From the sequence record PP786691.1: a stretch of DNA of 44,707 bases; one strand, given 5' to 3'. A program made the position numbers and the translations under genes. Shown in pieces: positions 1-44,707 of this stretch; position 1 is the first letter of the stretch, and every line of letters starts with the position of its first letter. The notes below the pieces were generated by a model. That model saw only the letters and a program-made list of their open reading frames with translations. It had not been told where the DNA came from and did not search any database. This DNA comes from Escherichia phage phiEco273.

Positions 1-860
1 CCGTGGTGGAAAAATAGCGTGGTCTTGCCGTGCTGCACCATTTTGTAGACGTCCGGGGACGTATCCACATCGACGCGCGGCTCGTTCTCGTACAGCGTGT
101 TGAACATCTCAGCAAGCCAAATCATGCCCGACTCATCATGATTCCCCTGGACGATTAGCAGTTTGACTTTGTGGTGTTTTTGCAGCGCCAGTTCGACGAC
201 GTTGCGCACCATGCGAATCATGTAGCGGACCAACTTCTGGTATCGGGTGTCGGCGTCCAGTATGTGACCACTTGCCGGAGTGACAGCATCGAGGCTATCA
301 AAGTGGGCCATATCACCGAGGATATTAATTACGGCAGTGCCTGCGTCCGGGGCGCGTGCGAAGGCTTCGACAAACCAGCGGTAGAACAGGTCTTCGGCGA
401 TCGCCATATCCCAGTCTTCGCCAGTCTCCTCGCCCCATGCCAACATGCCCAGGTGGAAGTCTGACACGGTGTACAGGTTGAGCAAGTCGAGCGCCTGGAT
501 CGGTACTGGCGGGGCGTTTACTGGCGCTGCCGGTGTGATTTCGCTGTTCATACCCTCGACAACAGCGCGCATAGCTTCGAGTTGGCGCTCTTTGTCCTGC
601 TCAGTGATGACCCACGACATGACCTCTTCGCCATTGCCGCGTACCAGGGCCGATACGCGCTTAACACCGAAGCCATCGGCAACGCGCTTGCGGATTACAG
701 CGTCATTGCCGTGTCCAATGCCTTTTTTCGACAGGCGGGCTTTCCGCATGTAGACGTTTCGGAGGGATAAACCGTACTTCTTAGAAATCTCTTTCGATGT
801 AGCGCCGGATTGTAATTCAGCAATCAATTGCTCGTCTGTGATTTTAGTTTGCGGGTGCAT
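1..860 (-). CDS. Calcineurin-like metallophosphoesterase with N-terminal HTH-like region; N-terminal part (ORF runs off the window start and continues in frame at 44425..44707)
   Basis: ATG at 860-858 preceded by AGGAAG; hand translation gives DFHLG, GDMAHFD, GNHD, FHHG motifs; no stop before coordinate 1. Absent from the ORF track because it is open at the window edge. Confidence 0.7.
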   Translation of the reverse strand, partial: MHPQTKITDEQLIAELQSGATSKEISKKYGLSLRNVYMRKARLSKKGIGHGNDAVIRKRVADGFGVKRVSALVRGNGEEVMSWVITEQDKERQLEAMRAVVEGMNSEITPAAPVNAPPVPIQALDLLNLYTVSDFHLGMLAWGEETGEDWDMAIAEDLFYRWFVEAFARAPDAGTAVINILGDMAHFDSLDAVTPASGHILDADTRYQKLVRYMIRMVRNVVELALQKHHKVKLLIVQGNHDESGMIWLAEMFNTLYENEPRVDVDTSPDVYKMVQHGKTTLFFHH

Positions 861-10978: not shown

Positions 10979-11148
10979 ATGCGCATTAAAGCCAGCGAAG
11001 TAAAAGTCGGAATGCGGGTATGGTCCAAGCTACTGGGGGAGTATTTCACAGTTGCCGAGATCCGCAACAACGGCGAGGAGATAGCCCTTTCCGACGGTAT
11101 ATTCTCCATGATCGGCAGCGCTGACGCCGTAGTGAGGATTAAGCAATG
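10979..11148 (+). CDS. small hypothetical protein (56 aa)
   Basis: ATG 10979; stop overlaps DNA polymerase ATG (ATGA); below ORF-track cutoff. Confidence 0.35.
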
Positions 11149-13437
11149 AAAGACTTCGAACGCCTTTTTCTCGATACCGAGACATTTAGCGGGGTGGACC
11201 TGAAGAAAGTGGGCGCATACGCCTACGCGGAACACCCAACTACCGAGATTATGATTTGCACATACGCCATCGACGAGGGCCGCGTACAGACATGGGATTG
11301 CACCGAATCCCCCACAATGCCGCGTGAACTGCGCAAGGCGCTCCGCCGGGTATCCCGCAAGAAAGCAAAAATCGTGATGGCTAACGGCCTCCTGTTTGAC
11401 CGCCTGGTTATTCGCGAGAAGTGGGGCATTGACCTGCCGGTAGGCCAGATCGAAGATACCATGATTATGGCCTTTCGCCACGCGCTGCCGGGTAGCCTCG
11501 ATATGCAGTGCCAGGTGTTGGGCGTTGACGCAGAGCACGCGAAGGATAAGGCTGGCAAGGCGCTAATCAAACGATTCTGTAAGCCAACCCCTAAGACCTA
11601 CAAAATCCGTCGCTATACGCGCGAGACGCACCCCGAGGAGTGGGCTAAATTCCTGCGCTACGCCGCGCTGGATATTGTTGCTATGCGTGAAGTCTACTGG
11701 CGCATACCAGACTGGGGCAACACGCCGAAGGAAGATGAAATCCTGCTTATTGACCAGATGATTAACGACCGCGGCTTCTATGTGGACGTTGACCTGGCTA
11801 ACGCCGCGATCAAAGCGGTGCAGGCGCATAAGGAAGAATTGAAGGAAGAAGCATGGGAGCGCTTCGGCGGTAAGCTGACCGGCAATGACTTCCTGCCAGC
11901 GCTGCGCGACCTCGCGCCTGCGTTCACAATACACAACGCGCAGAAATCCACGCTTAACGAACTGCTGGAAGACCAGGACTTCCCCGACGAGGGCAAAGTG
12001 CTTATCGAGATGCGCCTCGGCGCGTCATCAACGGCATCGACTAAGTACAATCCGCTCGTAAATGGGCTGTCTGCCGATGGTCGCCGCCGTGGTTGTCTTC
12101 AGTATGGTGGGGCAAAGCGCACGCTACGCTGGGCCGGAAAGGGCTTCCAGCCGCAAAACCTGGCACGCGGCGAGTATAGCGACGACCACGAAGGGAAGAT
12201 TAAGCGCCGTGATGGCGAGAGCGACGTCGCGTTTTGGGTGCGGTCGCACATGCTCACCAACGGCATCAACTCCCTGTTACGCGGGACCGCACACTGGGCG
12301 TATGACATATCGAAGCTAACGGCCTCGACTGTTCGCGGGTGCATTATTCCGGCGAAGGGTAAGAAGTTTGTCGTAGCGGACTACTCCAACGTGGAAGGGC
12401 GTGGCCTCGCCTGGATCGCTGGCGAGAAAACCGCGCTAATGGTGTTTAGGGCGGGTCGCGATATCTATTGTGAAACTGCCGGTAAGATGTTTGGCCTCGA
12501 CCCGGAATACATTAAAGCCAACCGCAAAGACTTACGCCAGATCGGTAAGGCGTGCGAATTGGGCCTGGGCTATGGTGGTGGCGTGGCGGCGTTCTTGCAG
12601 TTCGCTAAAAACCTGGGCCTCGACCTTTACGCGATGGCTGAAGTGATGAAGGGCACATTCCCCGATCACATTTGGGCGGCGGCGAAACGGGGTTATGAGT
12701 ACGCCCGGATCAACGAAGCGAAGCGCCCGCCGAAGCCTGGCAAGAAGGACGAGCGCCCAACTTATATACTGCCGAAAAACGTATGGTTGACGTGTGATGC
12801 GATCAAACGTATGTGGCGCGAGTCGCACCCGAAGACGGTAGCATTTTGGGCTGAACTGGAAGACGCGGTGCTCTGCGCGATCCGCAATCCGGGCAAAGCG
12901 TACTGGGCTGGCGCGAACGTTCGCCCGGATGGCAAGAAAGCGCTCAAGATAGTCCGCACGAAGGCGAAGCACGACCCCACCTTCGACGAGGAGCGCGACG
13001 ACCCGAACGCCGCGGGGTGGTGGTTGAAAATCGAGTTGCCGTCGGGGCGCATCATGAGTTATCCGGGCATTGCGCTGTCAGTGACTACCGAGATCGACGA
13101 AGATACCGGCAAGAAGCGCACCAGCACCCGCATTAAATATCAGGGCGAGAATCAGACGACCCGCCAGTGGGGCTTCCAGTACACCTACGGCGGCAAACTC
13201 ACGGAAAACATCATACAGGCGCTGTGTCGCGATATCCTCGCATGGTCCATGCCGGGCGTTGAATCTGCGGGATATGAGATCGTACTGTCCGTACACGATG
13301 AACTGATAACCGAAGTGCCGGATACTGACGACTACACAACCGAGGAGTTGTGCGCGCTGATGTGCGACCTGCCTGTTTGGGCGAAAGGCTTCCCGCTTGC
13401 CGCGGAAGGCGACATTATGTACAGGTACAGAAAATAA
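11146..13437 (+). CDS. DNA polymerase, family A (PolA-like) with 3'-5' exonuclease domain
   Basis: 763 aa; N-terminal exonuclease motif LFLDTETFSG; long polymerase-like C-terminal region ending ...SVHDELITEVP (family A motif C-like). Confidence 0.8.
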   Translation: MKDFERLFLDTETFSGVDLKKVGAYAYAEHPTTEIMICTYAIDEGRVQTWDCTESPTMPRELRKALRRVSRKKAKIVMANGLLFDRLVIREKWGIDLPVGQIEDTMIMAFRHALPGSLDMQCQVLGVDAEHAKDKAGKALIKRFCKPTPKTYKIRRYTRETHPEEWAKFLRYAALDIVAMREVYWRIPDWGNTPKEDEILLIDQMINDRGFYVDVDLANAAIKAVQAHKEELKEEAWERFGGKLTGNDFLPALRDLAPAFTIHNAQKSTLNELLEDQDFPDEGKVLIEMRLGASSTASTKYNPLVNGLSADGRRRGCLQYGGAKRTLRWAGKGFQPQNLARGEYSDDHEGKIKRRDGESDVAFWVRSHMLTNGINSLLRGTAHWAYDISKLTASTVRGCIIPAKGKKFVVADYSNVEGRGLAWIAGEKTALMVFRAGRDIYCETAGKMFGLDPEYIKANRKDLRQIGKACELGLGYGGGVAAFLQFAKNLGLDLYAMAEVMKGTFPDHIWAAAKRGYEYARINEAKRPPKPGKKDERPTYILPKNVWLTCDAIKRMWRESHPKTVAFWAELEDAVLCAIRNPGKAYWAGANVRPDGKKALKIVRTKAKHDPTFDEERDDPNAAGWWLKIELPSGRIMSYPGIALSVTTEIDEDTGKKRTSTRIKYQGENQTTRQWGFQYTYGGKLTENIIQALCRDILAWSMPGVESAGYEIVLSVHDELITEVPDTDDYTTEELCALMCDLPVWAKGFPLAAEGDIMYRYRK

Positions 13438-13972: not shown

Positions 13973-14191
13973 ATGAAAGATCATTACCGACTCACCAAGC
14001 TGGGCGAATGTAAACCGGGCGATCGCGTATGGTTTATCGCGGGCATGAATGACCCGCTGCCGTTGACGGTATGCTGGCAAAAATTTAAGAGCTTCCGGGC
14101 GACGGGTGTGCACATCGGGCACCGCACCAACTACGACGCCACAAAAAGGAACTGGAACAGTGAAACCGAAGTCTGGAAAAAGGCGGAATAG
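13973..14191 (+). CDS. hypothetical protein
   Basis: 72 aa from ATG 13973 (GGGAGA RBS). Confidence 0.4.
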   Translation: MKDHYRLTKLGECKPGDRVWFIAGMNDPLPLTVCWQKFKSFRATGVHIGHRTNYDATKRNWNSETEVWKKAE

Positions 14192-14195
14192 AGAT

Positions 14196-15620
14196 ATGGC
14201 ACGTTTCCGACGTCGCGAATATCAGAAGTTGATAACCGCGTTCATCCTCAAGCATAAGCGCTGCAATATTTGGGCGACAATGGGGTCGGGTAAAACCGGC
14301 GCGACTATGTGGGCGCTGAATAAAATGTTCCAGACTGGTATCCTGTCCAACCAGGAGGACCGCGTACTGGTGCTGGCCCCGCTGCGCGTTGCGTCCGGTA
14401 CATGGCCCCCGGAGCAGGAGAAATGGCGCTTCCCCGCCCTGCTGGTAGTAGACGGCACCGGGTCAGAGAAGGACCGCATCGCTGCGCTTGAGAGCGACGC
14501 TAACGTGGTTTGTGTTAACTATGATGTGGTTGAGTGGCTGGTTGACTATTGCGGCGACGAGTGGCCCTTTACGGTCGTTGTTGCCGATGAATCCACTAAG
14601 CTGAAAGGCTACCGCAGCAAGCAGGGCAGTAAGCGCGCCCGCGCCCTGGCGGCGATCGCACATAAGCGCGTCAAGCGCTGGATTAACCTTACAGGCACAC
14701 CCGCGCCAAACGGATTGAAAGACCTGTGGGGTCAGACGTGGTTTGTCGACGGTGGCGAACGCCTCGGCAGTAGCTATAAGGCATTTACGGACCGCTGGTT
14801 TATTAGCAAGCCTGTTAAGCCTGGCAGCTTCACGATGCAACACGCCCCGCTCAAGAACTCCGAGAAAGAAATACAACAACGCCTGTCTGACGTATCGCTC
14901 ACCGTTGACGCGGCTGAATACTTCGGATGTGATAAACCAATCTATACGCCGGTTGTTGTGGACCTGCCGAGGAAAGCCCGCAAGATTTATGACCAGTTCG
15001 AAGCGGAGCTATTTGCCGAACTGGAAAGCGGAACGGTGGAGGCGGCGAACGCTGCGTCGAAGACTATTAAGTGCCTTCAGCTTGCTTCCGGGGCCGTGTA
15101 TAAGGTCGACGAAGACGGCGAACGGACCGACGAATGGGTGAAAATTCACGACGCTAAGCTGGACGCGCTGGAAAGTATCGTGGAGGAGTTGAACGGCGCA
15201 CCGTTGCTCGTCGCATACCAGTACAAGCATGACTTGGCACGTCTTAAGAAGAAATTCCCACACGGCGTCGCTATGGGTAAGGGAAAGCAAGGCAATAAGG
15301 ATATGGAAGCGTGGAACAGGGGCGAGATCCCCATCATGTTCGCACACCCGGCATCGGCGGGTCACGGCCTTAACTTGCAGGATGGCGGACACCACCTTGC
15401 TATCTTCTCAGACACCTGGAACTTTGAGCACTTTTCGCAGATCGTGGAGCGTATCGGGCCGGTTCGCCAGATACAAGCCGGACACCCTCGTCCGGTATTC
15501 GTCTACATTATCCAGGCGCGCGGCACACTTGACGAACTGGTCGCCGAGCGTCGCGACAGTAAGCGGGATATTCAGGACGATTTGATGGAATACATGAAAG
15601 CTAAAAAGGCGCGCAAATGA
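14196..15620 (+). CDS. SNF2/DEAD-like superfamily 2 helicase
   Basis: ATG 14196; Walker A GSGKTG, motif II VVADESTKLK, helicase C-terminal domain. Confidence 0.75.
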   Translation: MARFRRREYQKLITAFILKHKRCNIWATMGSGKTGATMWALNKMFQTGILSNQEDRVLVLAPLRVASGTWPPEQEKWRFPALLVVDGTGSEKDRIAALESDANVVCVNYDVVEWLVDYCGDEWPFTVVVADESTKLKGYRSKQGSKRARALAAIAHKRVKRWINLTGTPAPNGLKDLWGQTWFVDGGERLGSSYKAFTDRWFISKPVKPGSFTMQHAPLKNSEKEIQQRLSDVSLTVDAAEYFGCDKPIYTPVVVDLPRKARKIYDQFEAELFAELESGTVEAANAASKTIKCLQLASGAVYKVDEDGERTDEWVKIHDAKLDALESIVEELNGAPLLVAYQYKHDLARLKKKFPHGVAMGKGKQGNKDMEAWNRGEIPIMFAHPASAGHGLNLQDGGHHLAIFSDTWNFEHFSQIVERIGPVRQIQAGHPRPVFVYIIQARGTLDELVAERRDSKRDIQDDLMEYMKAKKARK

Positions 15621-16312
15621 TTATCTGGTCATTATTTGACGGCAGCGGCTTGATGATTGAGCGTGCTGCCGAGATGGGGCATAAGTGTTATTGCTTCAAC
15701 TACTCCGAAGCCGATCATGGGTCTTACCTGGACTACCGGATTTATGGTCGCGGGATCCGCTATCGTAATGAGTTTATCGATCTGGACTTTGTAGACCGCG
15801 CGATGAATGGCGATTTCGGCGCGCCGGATATCATCTACGCATTCCCGCCGTGTACGGATCTGGCGGTGAGCGGTGCGCCAGCTTTCCCGCGCAAGCGTGC
15901 AAAAGACCCAGCCTTTCAGCTTAAGGCGGTGCGCACCGCGAAGATCGCCGCTTACCTGGGTGACTTCTTCGAAGTGCCATATATGATTGAGAATCCGCGC
16001 AGCGTGCTATCAACTCAATGGCGTAAGCCGGACCACTCGTTTGATCCGTGGGAGTATGGCGGATATCTGCCGGAGGATGACGTGCACCCGTTATTCCCGG
16101 AATACATCAACGCCCGCGATTCATATCCGAAGCTGACCTGCTTATGGACCGGCAACGGCTTCCGTATGCCAGAGAAGAAACCTGTTTTCGTTGAAAAAGG
16201 GTACTCGAAGCAGTATAGTCGCCTCGGAGGCAAATCTGCCCGCACCAAATTAATCAGGTCGCTCACCCCGCGCGGCTTCGCGATAGCGGTTAACGAGGAA
16301 AATTTAAAATGA
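15617..16312 (+). CDS. minimal C5-cytosine methyltransferase-like protein
   Basis: 231 aa; motif I-like LFDGSG, motif IV-like FPPCTDLAVSG (catalytic Cys), motif VI-like IENPRS; no obvious target-recognition domain; ATGA coupling with upstream helicase. Confidence 0.45.
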   Translation: MIIWSLFDGSGLMIERAAEMGHKCYCFNYSEADHGSYLDYRIYGRGIRYRNEFIDLDFVDRAMNGDFGAPDIIYAFPPCTDLAVSGAPAFPRKRAKDPAFQLKAVRTAKIAAYLGDFFEVPYMIENPRSVLSTQWRKPDHSFDPWEYGGYLPEDDVHPLFPEYINARDSYPKLTCLWTGNGFRMPEKKPVFVEKGYSKQYSRLGGKSARTKLIRSLTPRGFAIAVNEENLK

Positions 16313-16632
16313 ATACTGCATTCGACGCCATCGACTTTTCAGTGGCAATGACCAATCAGCTTTTTTCCTACGACAGCAAGACCGGCGTTATCCGCCTTAA
16401 GTCAACCGGCTGCAAGATTGGCAACCTCAATACTGCCGATGGCGGTACTCGTATCGAATGCAACGGCAAGACGCTGTCTGGCGCGCGCGTGGCGTGGATT
16501 ATCGCGACCGGCAATACAATCCCCCCAGGCTTCGCCGTTGTGTGCCGTCAGCGCACGCCAGGCCATTACGGCAACCGGATCAGCAATCTTTATTTGGTGG
16601 ACGTTGCGCGCGACCCTAACTTTTATGCGTAA
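16309..16632 (+). CDS. HNH-like (degenerate) endonuclease-fold protein
   Basis: 107 aa; pattern SYDSKTGVIRLK...ARVAWIIATG...GNRISNLYLV resembles HNH_3 homing-endonuclease layout with catalytic His apparently replaced. Confidence 0.35.
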   Translation: MNTAFDAIDFSVAMTNQLFSYDSKTGVIRLKSTGCKIGNLNTADGGTRIECNGKTLSGARVAWIIATGNTIPPGFAVVCRQRTPGHYGNRISNLYLVDVARDPNFYA

Positions 16633-16666
16633 ATTGGTTGCATAATCGTATTGGTTGCATTATATT
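16633..16666 (+). promoter_or_regulatory. Promoter-like element with two direct ATTGGTTGCAT repeats: -35 TTGCAT (16638-16643), 17-bp spacer, -10 TATATT (16661-16666)
   Basis: Direct reading; same architecture recurs at 38270-38310, 18292-18325, 22216-22248 and on the minus strand at ~3895-3960. Confidence 0.5.
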
Positions 16667-16669
16667 GAG

Positions 16670-16696
16670 GGTGTCCGGTTTGGACGCCTTTTTTAA
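16670..16696 (+). terminator. intrinsic terminator-like hairpin (GGTGTCC-GGTTT-GGACGCC + TTTTTT) inside the leader of the next gene
   Basis: 7-bp stem with one G-U pair followed by six T; overlaps predicted start site of the upstream promoter. Confidence 0.4.
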
Positions 16697-16713
16697 TACC
16701 TGGAGACAACACG

Positions 16714-17172
16714 ATGAAAATTTTACAAGAAGAAAAAGATTACTGGTCCGCGCAATGCCTTAAAGCCCGCGAGCAGGCAGAGCGCGTCAGCGCGCTGGCA
16801 GATACCTACCTGTCAAGCTATGAAACGGAAGAAAAGCGCCGCATGGAGTTAGAGGATCGCTTCGAACTGCTTTTTGAATTGATGGGGATTATGCAGCGCA
16901 CAGGATACACCACCAGCGTGGCGCTAAACCGCATCACTGCCGAAGGTCTGCGCGAGCATTGTAAACGCGCCGAGGAGTACGTGCGACCGAAGGGTCGCCA
17001 GTCTAAGATCGACAGGAAAGACCTGGTGCTGATAGCGTGGCGTGCGAACGGCAGCTACTATTCCGATAGCCGACCTCTTGGCAAGGATGAGATGGCGCGG
17101 ATCCAGCGCGTACTTACCCGAGACAAGAAAACGGCCCTGTACGCACTGGACCCGCAGAATGACGAAGAGTGA
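16714..17172 (+). CDS. hypothetical coiled-coil protein
   Basis: 152 aa, GGAGA RBS. Confidence 0.5.
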   Translation: MKILQEEKDYWSAQCLKAREQAERVSALADTYLSSYETEEKRRMELEDRFELLFELMGIMQRTGYTTSVALNRITAEGLREHCKRAEEYVRPKGRQSKIDRKDLVLIAWRANGSYYSDSRPLGKDEMARIQRVLTRDKKTALYALDPQNDEE

Positions 17173-17644
17173 GCAGAAAGATAGCTGGCGCACGCCGCCA
17201 GCTTTATTTAAACCGCTTCGTCGGAAATACCGATTCCGTTACGATATGGCGGCAAGCGATGCCAATCACCTGCTACCGCGGTACTTCACGGCAGAACACA
17301 GCGCGCTTGATGCGGACTGGGCAGAGTTGAAAGGGTGGAAGTGGTGTAACCCGCCGTATTCCGATCCGCTGCCGTGGGTCGAGTGCGCAGCGCGCGGACG
17401 CCGGACCGTCATGCTACTGAATCAGGACACGTCGACTAAGTGGGCGAGGCTGGCCCGGAAGACCGCCAATATGATAATTCTTCTGGACTGGCGGATTAGA
17501 TTCATTCACGCCGTCACCGGCGAAGTCGGGCCGAGCAATAACAAGTGCCAGCAATTAATAATATTTGACGAAGCGCCGCCCATCGGCAGCGCACAAATTG
17601 AAATAATGAGCGAAGGAGAACTACGTGAATATCTTAATCGTTGA
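17159..17644 (+). CDS. DNA N6-adenine methyltransferase (phage Dam-like family)
   Basis: ATG 17159 (verified); WRTPPALF near N-terminus and NPPY motif (CNPPYS). Confidence 0.7.
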   Translation: MTKSEQKDSWRTPPALFKPLRRKYRFRYDMAASDANHLLPRYFTAEHSALDADWAELKGWKWCNPPYSDPLPWVECAARGRRTVMLLNQDTSTKWARLARKTANMIILLDWRIRFIHAVTGEVGPSNNKCQQLIIFDEAPPIGSAQIEIMSEGELREYLNR

Positions 17645-17849
17645 CCGCAACCACGCGGTCGTAGACCAAATGCAAAAAGACTATAACATCGACCCACGCC
17701 GCGATCGTGTGGTGCGCGCGTCTCGCCCCGAATACATCCTGGGCCTTGACCTCACCGGTTGGCTTGTCATGACCCGACGTTGTCATTTCGTGTGCAACTC
17801 TTACACCGCGCGTAGCGCCCGAGCCACCCTTATTGAGAGCCTAAAATGA
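17625..17849 (+). CDS. hypothetical protein
   Basis: 74-aa ORF overlapping neighbours by short couplings. Confidence 0.35.
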   Translation: MNILIVDRNHAVVDQMQKDYNIDPRRDRVVRASRPEYILGLDLTGWLVMTRRCHFVCNSYTARSARATLIESLK

Positions 17850-18316
17850 AATTACTTATTTGCGATTTGGATGGAGTTATTAACGGTTCAAGCGATGCGC
17901 GCGCCGACCTGGTGCCGGGCATAAAAACTAAATCCACCTTTTGGGCGAAGTGGCACAAAGCGCATATACGCGAAGATCTGAACATGGATATGCTGCCGCT
18001 GCTGACCATGTACAAAGAGCAAGGCTTCGAGATCGCGTATCTGACAAACCGGCAGCGAGAATGCTGGGACACCACAGCCGAGCAATTGGAAGTATTCCCT
18101 AGAGGCCGGTTGTTTATGCGCCACATGATGGACGACACCCCGCCACCAGAGTTTAAGGCGTGCGCCGTGTTCAAAATGGTCTGCTACGCGGACGTGTCGG
18201 AACTGGTCATCATTGAAGACTGTCCGAAGAACATCGCGGCAATTCGTCGGGCGTGCAGCGATTTGGTCCCGAAAATTTATGCGATAAACGTTGCAAAATT
18301 CACTTGCAACCAATAG
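17846..18316 (+). CDS. HAD-superfamily phosphatase (nucleotidase / polynucleotide 3'-phosphatase-like)
   Basis: N-terminal motif LICDLDGVI (DxDG[TV]); 156 aa. Confidence 0.5.
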   Translation: MKLLICDLDGVINGSSDARADLVPGIKTKSTFWAKWHKAHIREDLNMDMLPLLTMYKEQGFEIAYLTNRQRECWDTTAEQLEVFPRGRLFMRHMMDDTPPPEFKACAVFKMVCYADVSELVIIEDCPKNIAAIRRACSDLVPKIYAINVAKFTCNQ

Positions 18317-18380
18317 GTTGGTTGCAGTATCTTAATCACGTCGGGGGCAATATCGCCCCATCGCTAAAAAGGGTAATACT

Positions 18381-18875
18381 GTGAAAGCATACGAATACTG
18401 CAAAAATGCCGCCACCACTATGGAGCAGCGCGGGAAAGAAAACGGCTATGACAACGAGAAAGAAGAACGCAGCGCTAAACAGATCGCCGCCGTGTTTAAC
18501 GCGCTTACCGGTCGCGACCTGACCGAGCAAGAAGCCTGGACCTTCCTGATCTGCCTGAAGCTGGTGCGCCAGCACCGTAAGCACCAGGAAGATAATATCG
18601 TGGATCTGGTGGCGTATGCCGCCCTGCTGGGCGAGTCTTACATGACCGTGCAGGACGAGATCCAGGTCGATACAACGGCAGCGCAATACGACAGCCTAAA
18701 AGACTGGCCTACCAAGATCAAAGCCACTAATTTCAATGCTGCTAAGTTCGGCATTGCGGGTCAAGAATTCCAGCCTATGGTCGTGCTCACCGGCGAAGAC
18801 GGATCCAAAATCCTCATGACGCCGGAAGACTTCCGCAACATGGAAAAAACACTGGTGACTGGCGCACTTAAATAA
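18381..18875 (+). CDS. hypothetical protein
   Basis: 164 aa, GTG start with AAGGG RBS. Confidence 0.45.
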   Translation: MKAYEYCKNAATTMEQRGKENGYDNEKEERSAKQIAAVFNALTGRDLTEQEAWTFLICLKLVRQHRKHQEDNIVDLVAYAALLGESYMTVQDEIQVDTTAAQYDSLKDWPTKIKATNFNAAKFGIAGQEFQPMVVLTGEDGSKILMTPEDFRNMEKTLVTGALK

Positions 18876-18917
18876 TTCTAATCGCGGGCTTCGGCCCGCA
18901 TCAATGAGGACCACACA

Positions 18918-19493
18918 ATGTACGGCGAATATGAAATAACCGGTAAACAATTCCACCTGGCGGCAATGATCGCAAGCATCGAGTTTGACCAATGGCGCCT
19001 AAAGTCTGACGCGTGCAAGCAAAGCCGTCTTGTCGGTGTGCTGGGCGAGATGTTTGCGGGCATGTACCTTGAGGGGCAGGCGGGCGGGCGTAGTTGCATA
19101 CCGCAAGGCTTACTTATGCGTACCGGCCTGTTTAGCGCCAACACCATTGACCGCGGCGATATCATCATGGTCGGCAAGCGCAAGGTTAAGTCCGGCCCTG
19201 ACTTCCGCGAACATATGATTGATGCCGTCTGGACCTATGAGGTCAAAGCCACCAGCGGCATCCGTCGAGGACTGGTCGAGGCACGTTGCGCTCGCGAGTA
19301 TCTGACCCGTCGAGTTGCCGGTGTTATTCTGGTCGGTGTGTCGTTCGGGCAGCATAGCGCGCACGGTGTGATTGAGGATATAGCAGAGCCATACGTGATC
19401 GTGAACGATTGGCCTTTAGTGGAGGTTGAAGGTAAGGAATACTACGAAAGCCCGCTGGTGCGGCGCAAAATGGATTGGGAAAACTCAAATTAA
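18918..19493 (+). CDS. hypothetical protein
   Basis: 191 aa; last gene of rightward operon. Confidence 0.5.
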   Translation: MYGEYEITGKQFHLAAMIASIEFDQWRLKSDACKQSRLVGVLGEMFAGMYLEGQAGGRSCIPQGLLMRTGLFSANTIDRGDIIMVGKRKVKSGPDFREHMIDAVWTYEVKATSGIRRGLVEARCAREYLTRRVAGVILVGVSFGQHSAHGVIEDIAEPYVIVNDWPLVEVEGKEYYESPLVRRKMDWENSN

Positions 19494-19496
19494 GAA

Positions 19497-19520
19497 AAGG
19501 GCCGTATGGCCCTTTCTTTT
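19497..19520. terminator. bidirectional intrinsic terminator (AAGGGCC-GTAT-GGCCCTT flanked by A/T runs)
   Basis: Sits exactly between convergent stops at 19493 (+) and 19521 (-). Confidence 0.7.
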
Positions 19521-22199
19521 TCAACCAGCTAACTTAGCCTCCAGTTCTGAGATTCTTTGCTCAAGTCCTCGGGCGATAAACACGTTTAGTTCCGAATATC
19601 GCAAGCTATATCTATTTCCCGCTGGGGTTATCTTGATCGTAGACTTCGAATTATCATCGGGGTCGCTAATAACCTCGGAAGTCTCCTCCCATTCGTCGTA
19701 GCACACGAATCCATACTTCAAGGGGTCCAGACCGTAAGACTGCATGATTTCCATCACTTTCTGCACGGTAATACCGGCATGGAGCCTTGCCTCGTCCCCC
19801 TCTTCAGCTACTCGCGCAAGCCACTGGAAAATACCAACCTCGCGGGCGATTTCTTTAGAAGCGCCCATCTCGGCCTCTGTTAAACCCCTAACCTCGGTCT
19901 TGAGTCTTGCGTCCGAGGTCTGTATGGCCCCGTTTGCTGCGTAGACCGCGCTAACACGGGAGACTGCACTGCCGATCGGGTATGCGTTGTCCGCAGCGGG
20001 GGACAGCGAGCCGTCGCTCGTAAAGCTCCACCGATCCTTCCTCGTCGTAGACCCTTGTTCCGTTGTAGCAATCGTTATGCCGCACTGGAGGTTTGTCGTA
20101 GACCAGCCAGAAGACGCCTGAATACGAATACCAGCGGCAGCACCCGTAAAACTTACACCACTGTGTCCTGCAAAAGATAGCCACAAGTTGTCTCCCGGCT
20201 GAGTTGCCCCCTTAGTGCCAGCCATTGTGCCGTCAAAAGCCACACCTCGGATGTTTATATTAGCGGTCGACCCGTTTCGTGGGGTGATTAAGGCTATTTC
20301 ATTAGCTGTGTTATTTACTTGTTTAAGACCGCGACCGTTTAATACTTCCAATCCGTTGTAACTTTCCTGCGTTAGCTTATAAAGCCCCATAGGCACATCG
20401 AAACCTATATAAAGGTCGCCGTTGTTGCTGGTCGCGAATGTTTGCCTCCGGTCGGCGTTGGTCTTATTCAATGGGGTTGTTAGCAACCTAAACCAGCCGC
20501 CGTGGTTAGTATCCGAAGCGGTCCCGTCCATGAGGAAGTGCTGCGACACGTTTGAGTGGTCCGTATATGTAGTACCAGTCCACGGACGCGACCCATACCC
20601 CCCAATAAGCACTCCTGTAGCCACGCCGGATCCGTTTGCCGGTTTTGAGTAGTTGTGGAAAACCGCGGACCCCCCGCCGACATTCGCAATACCAAAACTT
20701 GCCTCCGTGGCGTTGCTGGATTCCCAAACAACCCCGTCACCGCTGCCCTCCCCAGAAGTTACGGGCCGTAGTGTAGCCGTGCCAACCCCAATCTTCGGTG
20801 CATTCACTTTACCCGTAAAAGTCGGCGACGACCCAGAGTGATACAATTCAAACCACTGCGACCAGTTGCCGGTATCCGGGTTACTAATCCATCGCATAAA
20901 ACGACGCCCGCCGATGTATATTGTATACGTCTGAATGCAACTCTTCGGGCCGTTAGCGCCGATTTGCTGCACCAGCAAGCAACCCGCTTCCTTGACGGGA
21001 TAGTTAAGCTCCGGTGTGGCTTTTGCCGATACGGATTGACGGTAGAATCCAGCTTTATCGCCGGTCAGGGTGTTAAGGTCTACACTATCCAACGACCCCT
21101 TCTGTTCATGCATGACCTGAAGGTTAGCGCGCGCCCCCTGTTCGTCCGATGCGCCTGTCCCGCCGTCCCCGATCGCCACGTCCCCATTTGGCCCCAGCTT
21201 CGCAAGCTCAATGGCGCTCACACTGCCCGACAACCCGTTAATCCCATTATCGTTTCCCGCGTAAACTTTGACGCGAGCAGTCGTGTAGTCAACGTTAATC
21301 GCAAAAAATGTGTCACCAGCGCGGCCGAACACCCCTGAACTGAATCTGAAAGGGGTCATCTCGCCTGCTTGGAACTGAGAAATATCATCGACGCGCCAGA
21401 ATCCGCCCTTGACCGAATCACGCAACCGCTTGAGCATATCCTTTACGCCAGTTGGTGCCGGTAGCATTACACCAGCATACGGCACTTTCTGCGATGCGTC
21501 CGCGCTGTTGGCGAAGCCTTCAGCCTCGTCGCGAAATCCTTTAGCCTGGTCTTTAGCGGTTACGGCCTGCGATTTAGCTGTCTCCGCAGCGGTCTTCGCC
21601 GACTCTGCTGCCGTTTTTGCTGTCTCGGCTTTACCTTGTGCTGTCTCCGCGGCGGTCTTAGCGGCTACGGCGGCATCTTTCGCAGAGTTGGCGGTGTTCT
21701 TGAATCCTTCAGCCTCGTTACGAAAGCCTTGCGCCTGGTTCTTCGCCGTGATGGTCTGGTCTGCAATCTGCTGCAACTCCACCGGGTCCACGTCTTTAAG
21801 CAGGCTAGACAGGTAGCCCCATGACATACCCTGCACAACTTGCCCACTCGGCAGCGTGACCGAGATTTCCTCTTCTTCTCCGAAGATTGCGCGCCAGTTG
21901 TTCTCATCTGCGATCATCAAGCGCAACGCTTTTTGCGCCTGGACGGTTACGCCCATCGTCGCCAGCGACATGGTATCGCGCTTAACGCCGTCCCACGCAA
22001 GGCCGGTCGCCGTCGGGCCGTCGAACGGCAGTACCAACGTTAGCGCGGTTGCGCTTTCAATGGAAGCGATCGCTACGGTGTAGGGTACTTGTCCTACCAC
22101 CAGCGTTAAGAAATCGCCTGCTTTAAACGCGGTGAACGTTGTGCCAACCCCTACTACCGCCTTGCTGTTGTTCGTTACGGATAGCGTACCCGCTGCCAT
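19521..22199 (-). CDS. tail fiber protein with Ala/Lys-rich repeat shaft and C-terminal intramolecular chaperone (peptidase S74-like) domain
   Basis: ORF 19521..22256 begins on a TTG; first ATG with GAGGA RBS at 22199; repeats AKTAAETAKSQAVTAKDQAKGF; C-terminal ...SDARLKTEV...LEQRISELEAKLAG typical of autoproteolytic chaperone domains. Confidence 0.7.
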   Translation of the reverse strand: MAAGTLSVTNNSKAVVGVGTTFTAFKAGDFLTLVVGQVPYTVAIASIESATALTLVLPFDGPTATGLAWDGVKRDTMSLATMGVTVQAQKALRLMIADENNWRAIFGEEEEISVTLPSGQVVQGMSWGYLSSLLKDVDPVELQQIADQTITAKNQAQGFRNEAEGFKNTANSAKDAAVAAKTAAETAQGKAETAKTAAESAKTAAETAKSQAVTAKDQAKGFRDEAEGFANSADASQKVPYAGVMLPAPTGVKDMLKRLRDSVKGGFWRVDDISQFQAGEMTPFRFSSGVFGRAGDTFFAINVDYTTARVKVYAGNDNGINGLSGSVSAIELAKLGPNGDVAIGDGGTGASDEQGARANLQVMHEQKGSLDSVDLNTLTGDKAGFYRQSVSAKATPELNYPVKEAGCLLVQQIGANGPKSCIQTYTIYIGGRRFMRWISNPDTGNWSQWFELYHSGSSPTFTGKVNAPKIGVGTATLRPVTSGEGSGDGVVWESSNATEASFGIANVGGGSAVFHNYSKPANGSGVATGVLIGGYGSRPWTGTTYTDHSNVSQHFLMDGTASDTNHGGWFRLLTTPLNKTNADRRQTFATSNNGDLYIGFDVPMGLYKLTQESYNGLEVLNGRGLKQVNNTANEIALITPRNGSTANINIRGVAFDGTMAGTKGATQPGDNLWLSFAGHSGVSFTGAAAGIRIQASSGWSTTNLQCGITIATTEQGSTTRKDRWSFTSDGSLSPAADNAYPIGSAVSRVSAVYAANGAIQTSDARLKTEVRGLTEAEMGASKEIAREVGIFQWLARVAEEGDEARLHAGITVQKVMEIMQSYGLDPLKYGFVCYDEWEETSEVISDPDDNSKSTIKITPAGNRYSLRYSELNVFIARGLEQRISELEAKLAG

Positions 22200-42161: not shown

Positions 42162-43547
42162 TTAGTAGAAGTCTACAGTTGGAACAACGGCGATCGGACG
42201 AATCACAGGGAACAAGTGCGCAATAGGGTAGCCAGCCGCGTCATTCATGTGGTCCACACCGGCAGTTTTATCCGGCTCGCCTTTCTTCAGGTCGTACACC
42301 TGCTGTTCCAGACATTTCGCTAGTGTAGGGCATTTATCCAGGTTGACAAAATACTGGCGCACGCCCTTCGAGTTGCACATCATCGTATTCATCGCGATAA
42401 GTCTGTCTTTCACAGGCGGGTTAACGCTGTCGTATTCCACCTCGAAGCCCGCGTCTTCCAGTTGCGCGATATCAGACGAGGATGCGTTAACAGTCTTACG
42501 AGACTTGCCACTGCTATCCGGGTAAACGACAACCTTACCGGCAGCGCAATGATCTGGGTAGCGCTCCTCGATCGCCTCAATCATAGCCGGTGTGTCAAAC
42601 AGGTCCACAAATTCATCCACCGCGTGAATCTCGTCGCGGAACTCCTTGTTCTCGGTGGTACGCTGCCGTCTTACATACACGACCGCCGCCATTTTCGTGA
42701 CGTTAAAGTCCATACCGATAATCAGCGTGTCTTCCGGCTGCACTTCTTCGGTGCTTGCGTTCTCCTCACGGTTAAACATCTTGTATACCGCGCCCGACGT
42801 AAGGTTAACAAACATACCGTTCAGGTACGCATCGATCAGGTTAGCCGGGTACTGACTGCGAAGCGTGTCGATAAAGTCTGCCGGTAAATGGTGGTTGTCG
42901 GTGGTCTTCGCCCGGATCAGGCGCTTTTGGCTATCCTTCTCCACCTCGAAGATTTGATACATCGCCCGGAAGCCTTCCGGCGTGGACACGATGACAAACT
43001 GGCGGACAAGACCTGCACGCAGACGACCGAGCAATTTGTGATAAGCCGCCATTGCGACGTCTTGCTTCGTGGTGTCGAACTCGTCGGCAACAATCCACGC
43101 GGCGTTAACCCCGATTAGGCGGGTGTAGTTCTCCATTGACTCGCAGATAACGCGGGTCCATTTTCCTTTCACCAGAACGCTATAGATCTTGTCCTGCTTG
43201 TTGAACTTCCACCGGAAGCCCGCCTCGTCGAAAGCCTTCTCCAGTTCCGGATACATGATTTTAACCAGGAGTGGGATAGTCGGCTCGGTCACGATGCCGT
43301 CATGCCCCGGGTTCAGTGTCAGAAGCTGGATGACCTTTCTCGCAGCGACCCACGACTTTCCACCACCGAAGCCGGAACACAGGCCGAGGATTTTAGTCTT
43401 CGTGTCGCGCAGTAGTTCCACCTGGTGCGGAAGGCAATCAGGCTGGTACAGGCGGACGGCCTGCGCAACGCGCGTCGGGCGTGGTGGTCGGTTGCGCTTT
43501 GCGATCGCGCGCTCCAGTGCGCGGTGTTCTGCCGCATAGTTACGCAT
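42162..43547 (-). CDS. terminase large subunit
   Basis: 461 aa; Walker A-like GLCSGFGGGKS, Walker B-like AWIVADEFD, C-terminal nuclease-like region. Confidence 0.8.
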   Translation of the reverse strand: MRNYAAEHRALERAIAKRNRPPRPTRVAQAVRLYQPDCLPHQVELLRDTKTKILGLCSGFGGGKSWVAARKVIQLLTLNPGHDGIVTEPTIPLLVKIMYPELEKAFDEAGFRWKFNKQDKIYSVLVKGKWTRVICESMENYTRLIGVNAAWIVADEFDTTKQDVAMAAYHKLLGRLRAGLVRQFVIVSTPEGFRAMYQIFEVEKDSQKRLIRAKTTDNHHLPADFIDTLRSQYPANLIDAYLNGMFVNLTSGAVYKMFNREENASTEEVQPEDTLIIGMDFNVTKMAAVVYVRRQRTTENKEFRDEIHAVDEFVDLFDTPAMIEAIEERYPDHCAAGKVVVYPDSSGKSRKTVNASSSDIAQLEDAGFEVEYDSVNPPVKDRLIAMNTMMCNSKGVRQYFVNLDKCPTLAKCLEQQVYDLKKGEPDKTAGVDHMNDAAGYPIAHLFPVIRPIAVVPTVDFY

Positions 43548-44098
43548 TATTCGCCCTGGCCTTTTCCGGTAGGTTCGACAACGACGTCGCCGTTATCATC
43601 TTCGTCGTCATCCAGTGGGATATCGTCGCGTACGCCGTGGTTTGCTTTAAGCAGGAACGTAGCGAAGCCCGCCGCGATGGTCACGCCGCCAGCTTCCATC
43701 AGGAAAGTTTTCTGCAACTCCATTGCGTCAGCCATCGCCTCGGCGAACTCCTCATGTGCACGCGCCCAGCGGTACAGGCAGGCAACGCCCACACCGATTT
43801 CCGCGGCAAATCTGCCGAAGGTTGGCATTTTGTTGCGGGGAATTACTTGCGCAGCGCCTTTATCGGAGTAATTGACCTGCCAGGCGTCGGCGTCGGCAAA
43901 ATAGCGACGAAGCTGGTCGCAGTAAACAGATCGGTAGTCAGTAGGGCGTCCACATTTGCCGCCTTTACGGCGCTTTCCGTACTCGATTTCAGGTCCGAGA
44001 TTGGTATGCTCAGTTTGCTCGCCTGGTTTACGGCGCGGGGTTACTGCTACTCGTCCGTCCAGTTTGGCGCGTCGGCCCTTAACTTTGATTTCTGCCAT
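43547..44098 (-). CDS. terminase small subunit
   Basis: ORF 43547..44197; probable start ATG 44098; basic N-terminal DNA-binding-like region (GRPTDYRSVYCDQL...), acidic C-terminus; overlaps terL start. Confidence 0.55.
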   Translation of the reverse strand: MAEIKVKGRRAKLDGRVAVTPRRKPGEQTEHTNLGPEIEYGKRRKGGKCGRPTDYRSVYCDQLRRYFADADAWQVNYSDKGAAQVIPRNKMPTFGRFAAEIGVGVACLYRWARAHEEFAEAMADAMELQKTFLMEAGGVTIAAGFATFLLKANHGVRDDIPLDDDEDDNGDVVVEPTGKGQGE

Positions 44099-44168
44099 GA
44101 TATATGCCCTTTTGTTCATATGCGCCGACCATCGGCAACATAGGAGACGGCCCTGCCATCTAATGGGG

Positions 44169-44197
44169 ATTATAACAGGCACAAAAAAGCCCACCAA
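44169..44197 (-). promoter_or_regulatory. candidate late promoter: -35 TTGGTG (44197-44192), 17-bp spacer, extended -10 TGTTATAAT (44177-44169)
   Basis: Perfect TATAAT with TG extension read on minus strand upstream of terS. Confidence 0.4.
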
Positions 44198-44215: not shown

Positions 44216-44428
44216 CTAAACGGCGCGACCGTAGTATCGGGTTAACATGCTTTCTACTTCGCGTATTGCGCCTTCTGTGTAGCGTATTTGCGATAGTATC
44301 TCGATCCGTTCGCTGATAGACATGCCTACCGCCGCTGCCGTTCGTTCGAATCGGCGCAAGCCTTCGAGTTGTTTGCGTAATTCCTTCAGGCGTGTGGCCT
44401 GCGTGCTCATGAATACTTGTCTAATCAT
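44216..44428 (-). CDS. hypothetical protein (70 aa)
   Basis: ATG overlaps upstream stop (ATGA). Confidence 0.4.
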   Translation of the reverse strand: MIRQVFMSTQATRLKELRKQLEGLRRFERTAAAVGMSISERIEILSQIRYTEGAIREVESMLTRYYGRAV

Positions 44429-44707
44429 TTCAACATTTCCGGGCTAATGGTTAAGCGCGCTACTTCGCCGTAGTTGGCGCTATAGGTGATGACGTTTGCG
44501 CTGCGACCGGACATCCAACCACCACGACTGGCGTAGGCGTCTTTCGCTGCGAGCGTCCGGTGCTGTTCAACAATCATGTTGCGGGATTCTACAATCTTCT
44601 GGTGGTGCAAGTGGCCTACGTGCGCGTAGCTGTACTCACTGGCCCCGAAAGCCTGTCTGAATTTAGAAATCATGACGGTTTCGATAGCGTCAAAGCGCGC
44701 TTTATGC
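44425..44707 (-). CDS. Calcineurin-like metallophosphoesterase, C-terminal part (continuation of 1..860 across the window junction)
   Basis: Reading frame stays open to the last base of the window and is in phase with the ORF leaving coordinate 1 (...FFHHG|HKARFDAIETVMISKF...); contains GHLHH motif. Confidence 0.7.
   Translation of the reverse strand, partial: HKARFDAIETVMISKFRQAFGASEYSYAHVGHLHHQKIVESRNMIVEQHRTLAAKDAYASRGGWMSGRSANVITYSANYGEVARLTISPEMLK

Follow-up and report, generated by a model that had tools for sequence, protein, structure and literature searches.

A stand-alone HAD phosphatase encoded beside ksap1 in Escherichia phage phiEco273, a divergent relative of the 3'-phosphatase domain of Pnkp

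Background

The polynucleotide kinase-phosphatase of phage T4 (Pnkp; gene pseT, structures 1LTQ and 5UJ0) carries a C-terminal 3'-phosphatase domain of the HAD fold (PF25109) in which D165 is the nucleophile and D167 the general acid-base, S211 and K258 contact the phosphate, and D165 and D278 bind Mg (PMC3592404). Pnkp1 of Capnocytophaga gingivalis (4XRP and 4XRU) is also a kinase-phosphatase fusion, and it acts on RNA together with a ligase and a methyltransferase in the Pnkp1-Rnl-Hen1 repair system. Here we describe a HAD-superfamily phosphatase of 156 amino acids encoded at positions 17846..18316 (plus strand) of Escherichia phage phiEco273 (record PP786691.1; the whole stretch of 44,707 nucleotides that was analysed is called the window), which by its motifs, profiles and fold is a stand-alone homologue of these phosphatase domains. 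A first-pass annotation had grouped this protein with a calcineurin-like phosphoesterase whose gene spans the ends of the record, and had offered three roles: 5'-nucleotidase, polynucleotide 3'-phosphatase in the repair of RNA and tRNA, or phosphodiesterase of signalling nucleotides.

Yeast Tpp1 and the phosphatase domain of eukaryotic PNKP (PF08645, PNK3P) offer a precedent for a HAD 3'-phosphatase that needs no kinase and makes 3'-OH ends for polymerase or ligase. They represent a different HAD subfamily; the window protein has no direct PF08645 match, and the family matches weakly in 3 of 23 diverse relatives. A second group of HAD enzymes that has to be considered is that of the class B and C acid phosphatases (PF03767; B. 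anthracis 2I33; e(P4)-type 5'-nucleotidases), which are secreted or lipoproteins of about 230-270 amino acids with larger caps. Finally, the bacterial PUA-Cal-HAD defence, a two-gene operon with a filament and a PUA sensor, uses a calcineurin-like phosphoesterase paired with a HAD protein to deplete dNTPs, and is triggered by Dam-derived N6-methyl-dAMP (m6-dAMP) (bioRxiv 10.64898/2026.01.15.699771).

Results and discussion

A conserved gene in a Dhillonvirus genome

The window comprises a complete genome, circularly permuted, of a Dhillonvirus, one of the E. coli siphophages in the HK578 / SSL-2009a / SECphi18 group. For its region 16500-19600 there are matches in 158 phage records, at nucleotide identities of about 88-91%, and Escherichia or Shigella Dhillonviruses make up nearly all of these records. 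The HAD protein (N-terminus MKLLICDLDGVING) is 95-99% identical in 112 phage records, against only about 90% for the DNA; over more than 140 Dhillonvirus records the amino-acid identity is about 96%, again with about 90% for the nucleotides. The SECphi18 copy is 96.8% identical to that of the window. The pairwise ratio of non-synonymous to synonymous substitution rates (dN/dS) is 0.03-0.08 in comparisons with SECphi18, UDS3lw and SSL-2009a. Since protein identity exceeds DNA identity among the Dhillonvirus records and dN/dS is low, the open reading frame (ORF) 17846-18316 is a real gene under strong purifying selection. The DxDGV protein proposed in the first-pass annotation therefore exists, with its four HAD motifs intact.

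Two antisense ORFs that lie over the gene, 17830-18174 and 17888-18313 (both minus strand), were rejected as mechanical artefacts. The additional 'hypothetical protein' that is placed beneath the HAD gene in many GenBank Dhillonvirus records (for instance SSL-2009a orf31) is probably spurious. In the IMG/VR Dhillonvirus contigs L025 and L033 (6001-6516) the HAD ORF is 45 nt longer and encodes 171 amino acids, which suggests that the usual stop codon has been lost; the hairpin found at the stop codon elsewhere was not found there.

Catalytic motifs and predicted fold

Conservation was read from two alignments, one of 13 HAD homologues down to 40% identity and one of 23 diverse relatives that include the C-terminal domain of T4 Pnkp. 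All motifs lie on the plus strand. Motif I, D7-L-D9-G-V (17864..17878), is invariant at both aspartates in either alignment, and from the roles of T4 D165 and D167 (PMC3592404) D7 is the predicted nucleophile and D9 the predicted general acid/base. Motif II, T67-N68-R69 (18044..18052), corresponds to T4 S211-G-R213; its first position is S or T among the relatives. It is followed by R92 (18119..18121; T4 R246), nearly invariant within the family, by the motif III lysine K104 (18155..18157; T4 K258), and by motif IV, E124-D125 with C126 behind it (18215..18223), which aligns with the Mg2+ ligands D277-D278 of T4 and with R279. Further counterparts obtained from the 23-relative alignment and from hhalign are R19 for T4 R176 and E43 for T4 D187. 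D7, D9, R69, K104 and D125 are invariant in the 13 homologues. Among the 23 relatives D7, D9, R69 and D125 are invariant, and G10, R19, W33, R92, D96, K104 and an acidic residue (D/E) at position 124 are nearly so. The changes S211T and D277E, which would correspond to T67 and E124, reportedly leave T4 Pnkp active.

An AlphaFold2 model of the protein (predicted local distance difference test, pLDDT, 87; predicted template modelling score, pTM, 0.82) shows a Rossmann-like core of strands alternating with helices. Together with the conservation of motifs I-IV, this core places the protein in the HAD superfamily of DxDxT acylphosphatases. Alignments and model also delimit a helical insert between motifs I and II that characterizes the subfamily, R19 ... 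W33-x-x-W36-H37-K38-A-H40-x-x-E43-x-x-N46 (17900..17983), which exceeds that of T4 by about 14 residues and has the signature R-x-x-L-V-P ... W-x-x-W-H-K-A-H-x-x-E-x-x-N. The helical hairpin formed at residues ~13-45 is modelled with less confidence, its helices 17-22 and 29-42 having pLDDT values of 65-75.

Relationship to Pnkp-type phosphatases

In PHROG, in a PDB profile search, in Foldseek and in hhalign the HAD protein was consistently closer to Pnkp-type domains than to acid phosphatases. It matched PHROG 415, 'polynucleotide kinase', at 2e-35 over residues 1-154. A PDB search with the profile of the 13 homologues gave Pnkp1 (4xrp, 0.0024) as best match, and Foldseek against the PDB again put Pnkp1 first (4xru, 9e-6, 20% identity), so that it is the top PDB match by sequence profile and by structure. 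The phosphatase of T4 Pnkp came next (5uj0/1ltq, 1e-4, TM ~0.65), and the class C acid phosphatase 2i33 was a weaker structural match (1.7e-3); Foldseek gave 35 matches at E<=1e-3 in all, and those listed are HAD-type enzymes. Against BFVD the neighbours were mostly phage proteins named Pnkp or phosphatase (TM 0.72-0.78). When the family was aligned by hhalign with Pnkp-type domains (T4 plus kinase-fused and 2H-fused relatives) the probability was 99.3% and E 1.1e-20 over 123 columns, whereas against the T4 sequence alone the match was weak (probability 32%, 35 columns). Of 23 diverse relatives scanned with Pfam, 18 matched HAD_PNKP (E<=0.01) and 22 Acid_phosphat_B.

An exhaustive profile search returned 424 relatives, chiefly stand-alone proteins of 145-175 amino acids. 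Twenty longer ones were scanned for domains: five are built like Pnkp, with an AAA_33 kinase at the N-terminus, one is a HAD tandem, a 2H/LigT phosphoesterase and DUF551 are present in one each, and what lies beyond named domains in the rest consists of unassigned extensions. The union of HAD and 2H/LigT is an RNA end-healing combination.

These comparisons establish, at the level of sequence, that the family is homologous to the Pnkp 3'-phosphatase clade, of which the window protein is a divergent member. Assignment by hidden Markov models (HMMs), the route that the first-pass annotation had proposed, narrows its position to the branch of Pnkp-type 3'-phosphatases and class B-C acid phosphatases. 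The same assignment rules out an NT5C-type enzyme, and with it the 5'-nucleotidase option in that form; polynucleotide 3'-phosphatase is the best supported of the three options first proposed, and the annotation was fair in stating that sequence alone could not decide the substrate. The labels 'putative phosphatase' and 'polynucleotide kinase/phosphatase' are already in use for the protein in several sister genomes; among these enzymes its subfamily is a divergent one. The PHROG-derived label 'polynucleotide kinase' is wrong for HAD proteins of 156 amino acids because they have no kinase domain.

With T4 Pnkp the window protein shares the HAD fold, the DxDG(T/V) chemistry and nine residue counterparts, but it lacks the kinase domain, is only 17-19% identical, has no PF25109 score, and comes from a genome without an Rnl partner. 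Unlike Pnkp1, which is fused to a kinase and accompanied by a ligase and a methyltransferase acting on RNA, it stands alone in a DNA replication module.

Several observations weigh against kinship with Pnkp, or against the kind of substrate that such kinship suggests. Taken alone, the window protein has a single Pfam match, Acid_phosphat_B (PF03767; residues 24-82, 8.6e-5), at 22.6 bits against a cutoff of 27, and HAD_PNKP (PF25109) was not reported for it even at E<=10; no curated threshold was reached, NCBIfam giving nothing usable and a single-sequence PDB search nothing. Other HAD enzymes, of the lipin, sEH and beta-PGM types, follow Pnkp in Foldseek by small margins. T4 D254 is replaced by Pro100 and T4 R279 by Cys126, where R246 and R279 of the T4 enzyme are said to bind a sulfate standing in for the penultimate phosphodiester. 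The small helical hairpin of the insert could, in the model, close over a small molecule, and W33-x-x-W36 also aligns with a W-x-x-W of the class C acid phosphatases, which are mononucleotidases. Lastly, literature searches turned up a single mention of the protein, where its gene figures as the 'phosphatase-encoding' neighbour of ksap1 (PMC11564622); no biochemical work on it, on Dhillonvirus phosphatases or on phage HAD anti-defence enzymes was found.

Proposed activity

Considering both sides, the window protein is very probably an active HAD phosphomonoesterase of the Pnkp clade, to judge from its motifs and relatives. We infer its substrate and biological role from homology and context, and here we are more tentative: the substrate class may quite possibly be the 3'-phosphate ends of nucleic acids or 3'-nucleotides, perhaps with 2',3'-cyclic phosphates.

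The enzyme would be a Mg2+-dependent phosphomonoesterase, a divergent stand-alone relative of the T4 Pnkp C-terminal domain, expressed from a long plus-strand operon that would comprise PolA, an SNF2 helicase, two methyltransferases, HNH, Dam, Ksap1, HAD and DUF6378 genes. T67 and K104 would hold the phosphate oxygens, and E124, D125 and D7 the Mg2+. D7 would attack the phosphate to give an aspartyl-phosphate, and D9 would protonate the departing 3'-oxygen and then activate water. The reaction would thus leave a 3'-OH where a DNA end, an RNA end or a 3'-mononucleotide had borne a 3'-phosphate, possibly also a 2',3'-cyclic one, and the clearing of blocking 3'-phosphates would make ends usable by the phage PolA and the host ligase. 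The role would then be DNA end-healing or counter-defence rather than tRNA repair of the T4 type. As a whole, the protein is an ordinary accessory enzyme with two modest leads, its coupling to Ksap1 and its linkage to methyltransferases.

Mononucleotides as substrates

The alternative that survives best is a mononucleotide phosphatase active on 5'- or 3'-(d)NMPs, a nucleotide-pool enzyme like the class B/C acid phosphatases such as e(P4), in which the base would be clamped between aromatic residues. We regard it as unlikely. The window protein touches no Pfam family but Acid_phosphat_B, which matches almost all of the diverse relatives; 2i33 was the second-best PDB profile match (0.0054), with W33/W36 superposed on its W-x-x-W within an alignable motif I-II region; and some records name homologues 'nucleotidase'. 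The window also offers no kinase or ligase partner, and the counterpart of T4 R279, to which a part in polynucleotide binding is reportedly due, is absent. On the other side stands the closer relationship to Pnkp-type domains described above. The insert, for its part, cannot separate polynucleotide from mononucleotide substrates, because kinase-fused relatives carry a similar element (W-x-x-F/W, including W-x-x-F-F) just as class C acid phosphatases do. Moreover, a 5'-dNMPase would waste replication precursors, unless it were specific for an unwanted nucleotide.

Linkage to adenine methyltransferases

A search for related loci with the alignment of close homologues returned Dhillonviruses only, and the wider contexts of the HAD gene were assembled from tblastn matches and contigs; 11 were informative, and two further contigs were too short to judge. 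For HAD genes with the W-x-x-W-H-x-A signature, nine of the 11 contexts include a gene for a DNA N6-adenine (or N6/N4) methyltransferase that shares their strand and is no more than about 1.6 kb away, and in 10 of the 11 the HAD gene is inside a module with PolA, helicase and DNA methyltransferase genes. By Pfam the methyltransferases belong to four families: PF05869 Dam in the window, in loci L008-L011 and L040 and in Serratia phage Otaku/L013; PF05063 MT-A70 in L015, Kosakonia Kc259 and L043; PF02086 (D12 class) in Pectobacterium CB3, Kosakonia Kc283, Escherichia EK8, SonariX, L045 and Klebsiella Halo_KS_7; and PF01555 in L042. Near the HAD genes of L041 and L044 no methyltransferase was detected. 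A more distant homologue from the Drexlerviridae (phage tunus) has neither the W-H signature nor a methyltransferase within 3.5 kb. Loci L003, L004, L005, L035, L036 and L038 are also listed for adjacency of the two genes.

A phosphatase acting on N6-methyl-dAMP or a related breakdown product, which would block its re-incorporation or erase the m6-dAMP alarm of PUA-Cal-HAD, would account for this linkage, and both the recurrence of the adjacency across four Pfam families and the joint absence of motif and methyltransferase in the Drexlerviridae homologue speak for it. So does the demonstration that m6-dAMP is a defence trigger (bioRxiv 10.64898/2026.01.15.699771), in a preprint that does not mention phage phosphatases; the link between that trigger and the phage HAD is speculation. 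Against it, L041 and L044 lack the methyltransferase, there is no biochemical hint of base specificity, and no more than two broad types of phage architecture are represented, that of Dhillonvirus/Guernseyvirinae-like siphophages and that of Schitoviridae. In each of the two, HAD and methyltransferase genes lie at the end of the replication module, an accessory-gene hot spot, so that shared position alone is a sufficient explanation of the adjacency. We therefore consider a methylation-linked phosphatase distinctly unlikely. The more general proposal is improbable to a slightly greater degree: that W-x-x-W-H-x-A(H/F) HADs are partners of phage adenine methylation, dephosphorylating N6-methyl-dAMP or a related methylation-derived nucleotide for pool sanitising or m6-dAMP silencing, that in Dhillonviruses the HAD may work jointly with Ksap1, to which it would be coupled in translation and which KpAvs2 would have evolved to detect, and that Dam-Ksap1-HAD would then be a counter-defence cassette rather than a housekeeping one. 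That adenine methyltransferases from four unrelated families recur beside the HAD gene is nonetheless a cheap lead, which would tie a large family of phage phosphatases to methylation-derived nucleotides that trigger immunity.

Two metagenomic relatives have neighbours of another kind, a PAPS-reductase-like protein in L041 (4483-5340; a faint match) and an Nmad5 'nucleotide modification associated' domain protein in L042 (141-824). They hint that the subfamily travels with genes of DNA or nucleotide modification.

tRNA repair and signalling nucleotides

The first-pass annotation had coupled the 3'-phosphatase option to tRNA repair against anticodon nucleases, and this half of the proposal did not hold. 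The phosphatase domains of T4 Pnkp and Pnkp1, to which the window protein is related, do act in RNA repair, and the 2H-fused relative fits such a role; a kinase and a ligase would have to be borrowed from the host. No P-loop kinase of the Pnk type is present in the window, where the primase-helicase, the SNF2 helicase and spurious ORFs are the only carriers of Walker A motifs, and the annotation of the relative Bas84 lists no Pnk kinase. Nor is there a KxDG ligase in the window, its sole KxDG being a chance match in a 216-amino-acid ORF (43547-44197). The 152-amino-acid ORF at 16714-17172 (phrog_10530), considered as a DNA ligase partner, was rejected, as it has no ligase motif and no Pfam or PDB match. 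With neither kinase nor ligase in the genome, RNA (tRNA) repair of the T4 type is not encoded. The HAD gene sits, besides, within a DNA replication module. Host RtcB seals 3'-P and 2',3'>P ends directly, and removal of the 3'-phosphate would thus oppose host repair. T4-like tRNA repair is accordingly a very unlikely role. PHROG 10530 and several GenBank records label the 152-amino-acid ORF 'DNA ligase', which seems to be a misannotation propagated from SSL-2009a orf35.

Degradation of immune signalling nucleotides by the HAD protein, the metallophosphoesterase or both (anti-CBASS, anti-Pycsar or anti-Thoeris activity, or a pairing like the dNTP depletion of Cal-HAD) is scarcely credible: the metallophosphoesterase fold does include cyclic-nucleotide phosphodiesterases and a calcineurin-like and HAD pair is at work in PUA-Cal-HAD (bioRxiv 10.64898/2026.01.15.699771), but no PADLOC-DB v2 model matches either protein at E<=1, neither resembles Acb1 (2H) or Apyc1 (MBL), the two genes are unlinked as described below, and the metallophosphoesterase has a DNA-binding type of helix-turn-helix (HTH) and groups with PHROGs named 'DNA repair exonuclease'. 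For the HAD protein an anti-CBASS or anti-Pycsar phosphodiesterase was also rejected on chemistry, since HADs are phosphomonoesterases, which disposes of the signalling option offered for it at first. The resemblance to PUA-Cal-HAD, in the kinds of enzyme acting on nucleotides and in the tie to Dam methylation, goes no further than this.

The junction-spanning metallophosphoesterase

Joining the ends of the window yields a 380-amino-acid ORF on the minus strand, complement(join(44425..44707,1..860)), with the start codon and 5' part in 1..860 and the 3' part with the stop codon in 44425..44707. The calcineurin-like phosphoesterase with an HTH-like N-terminus foreseen in the first-pass annotation is thus confirmed. 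The N-terminal ~45 residues are HTH-like (a weak match of LuxR/UhpA type), and the five calcineurin-type motifs, D134xH136, G182D183, G239N240H241(D/E), H285/H286/H288 and G318H319xH321, are invariant in 16 sequences. Pfam Metallophos and Metallophos_2 both score below threshold. The gene is a real one, a widespread and strongly conserved phage gene for an HTH-fused calcineurin-like enzyme. The family comprises 3,658 protein clusters and occurs in 2,060 phage records (Dhillonvirus, Guernseyvirinae, Drexlerviridae, Vibrio phages and others), and the gene shows about 75% identity when Dhillonvirus copies are compared with those of Guernseyvirinae (Jersey/Kagunavirus-like) phages. The lysis genes flank it on one side; on the other, immediately downstream, come a small ORF and the gene for the small terminase.

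An Mre11/SbcD-type exonuclease is suggested only by PHROG 704, 'DNA repair exonuclease' (3e-160), and no SbcC-like partner is annotated among the neighbours. A PDB sequence search gave a spurious match to a repeat protein only. The structure predicted from the 97%-identical P0165 with a shallow alignment reached a pLDDT of 56, and a fold search with that poor model returned nothing at E<=1e-3.

About 17 kb separates the HAD gene from the metallophosphoesterase gene, and the two are on opposite strands and in different modules, replication in one case and lysis/packaging in the other. The HAD protein is found in 192 phage records against the 2,060 of the metallophosphoesterase, most of which are therefore without it. 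Because this distribution is ten-fold wider and the location unlinked, the idea that the two enzymes form one system was rejected, and their grouping in the first-pass annotation falls with it.

Coupling to Ksap1

KpAvs2, an NLR-like defence, is bound and thereby activated by Ksap1, a protein of Dhillonviruses (Bechon et al. 2024, PMC11564622). The 74-amino-acid ORF at 17625..17849 (plus strand) is, by its sequence, PHROG assignment and the published description, the Ksap1 homologue; the SECphi18 copy has K30, L39, L47, T50 and F60, exactly as in the Ksap1 of that paper. The ORF, which begins with GTG in the window, overlaps both the stop codon of the Dam gene and the start of the HAD gene. 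This arrangement recurs in divergent Dhillonvirus-like contigs, where the HAD protein is only 42-45% identical and a Ksap1 homologue (30-36% identity) still overlaps its start. The HAD protein would then be the co-translated neighbour of an infection signal for an NLR-like receptor, and the substrate of the phosphatase could reveal what Ksap1 does. K30 and F60 of SECphi18 are replaced by V30 and Y60 in the window copy; activation of KpAvs2 is abolished by three changes, among them K30V and F60V (PMC11564622). Since these positions differ, the window phage may be a weaker trigger of KpAvs2.

Neighbouring genes and local elements

The plus-strand module of replication and DNA modification runs from an exonuclease and a Gp2.5-like single-stranded DNA-binding protein through PolA (11146-13437), the SNF2 helicase (14106-15620), a methyltransferase (15617-16312), HNH (16309-16632) and the 152-amino-acid ORF to Dam, Ksap1, HAD, DUF6378 and a 191-amino-acid ORF. 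The Dam-type N6-adenine DNA methyltransferase (PF05869, 9.7e-36) occupies 17159..17644, its start inferred from SECphi18, and no plus-strand terminator was detected between it and the HAD gene. The last gene of the module (18918..19493, plus strand; phrog_10558) is called 'restriction endonuclease' in one record.

The downstream neighbour of the HAD gene encodes a DUF6378 protein (18381..18875, plus strand; Pfam and PHROG), with a conserved core QRG-x-x-NGYD ... ERSA ... LTE-x-EAW-x-F-x-ICLKLVR ... DN-x-x-DL-x-x-YA-x-LL-x-E. It recurs within about 1 kb of HAD in several lineages (L008 4508-5029, L011 6824-7339, L040 4703-5155, L044 2291-2998), in L044 even though no methyltransferase is nearby. 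It had been suspected of being a MazG-like NTP pyrophosphatase, which, if true, would have favoured a nucleotide-pool pathway; PDB searches with the single sequence and with a profile gave no match, and no literature on its function was found. The PHROG label 'phosphofructokinase' for this protein is not credible.

Behind the 191-amino-acid ORF a bidirectional terminator-like hairpin (19495..19516; AAAGGGCC-GTAT-GGCCCTTT), found by a terminator scan and flanked by T-runs on both strands, closes the module and faces a convergent tail-fibre gene. A second element, a perfect 9-bp inverted repeat (TGCAACCAA / TTGGTTGCA; 18305..18326), has the TAG stop codon of the HAD gene within its 4-nt loop. 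Of 17 close Dhillonvirus loci, 14 have the repeat unchanged, and divergent loci lack it. Because no T-run follows it on the plus strand it is not a classical terminator, and it could be a site of RNA processing, attenuation or protein binding.

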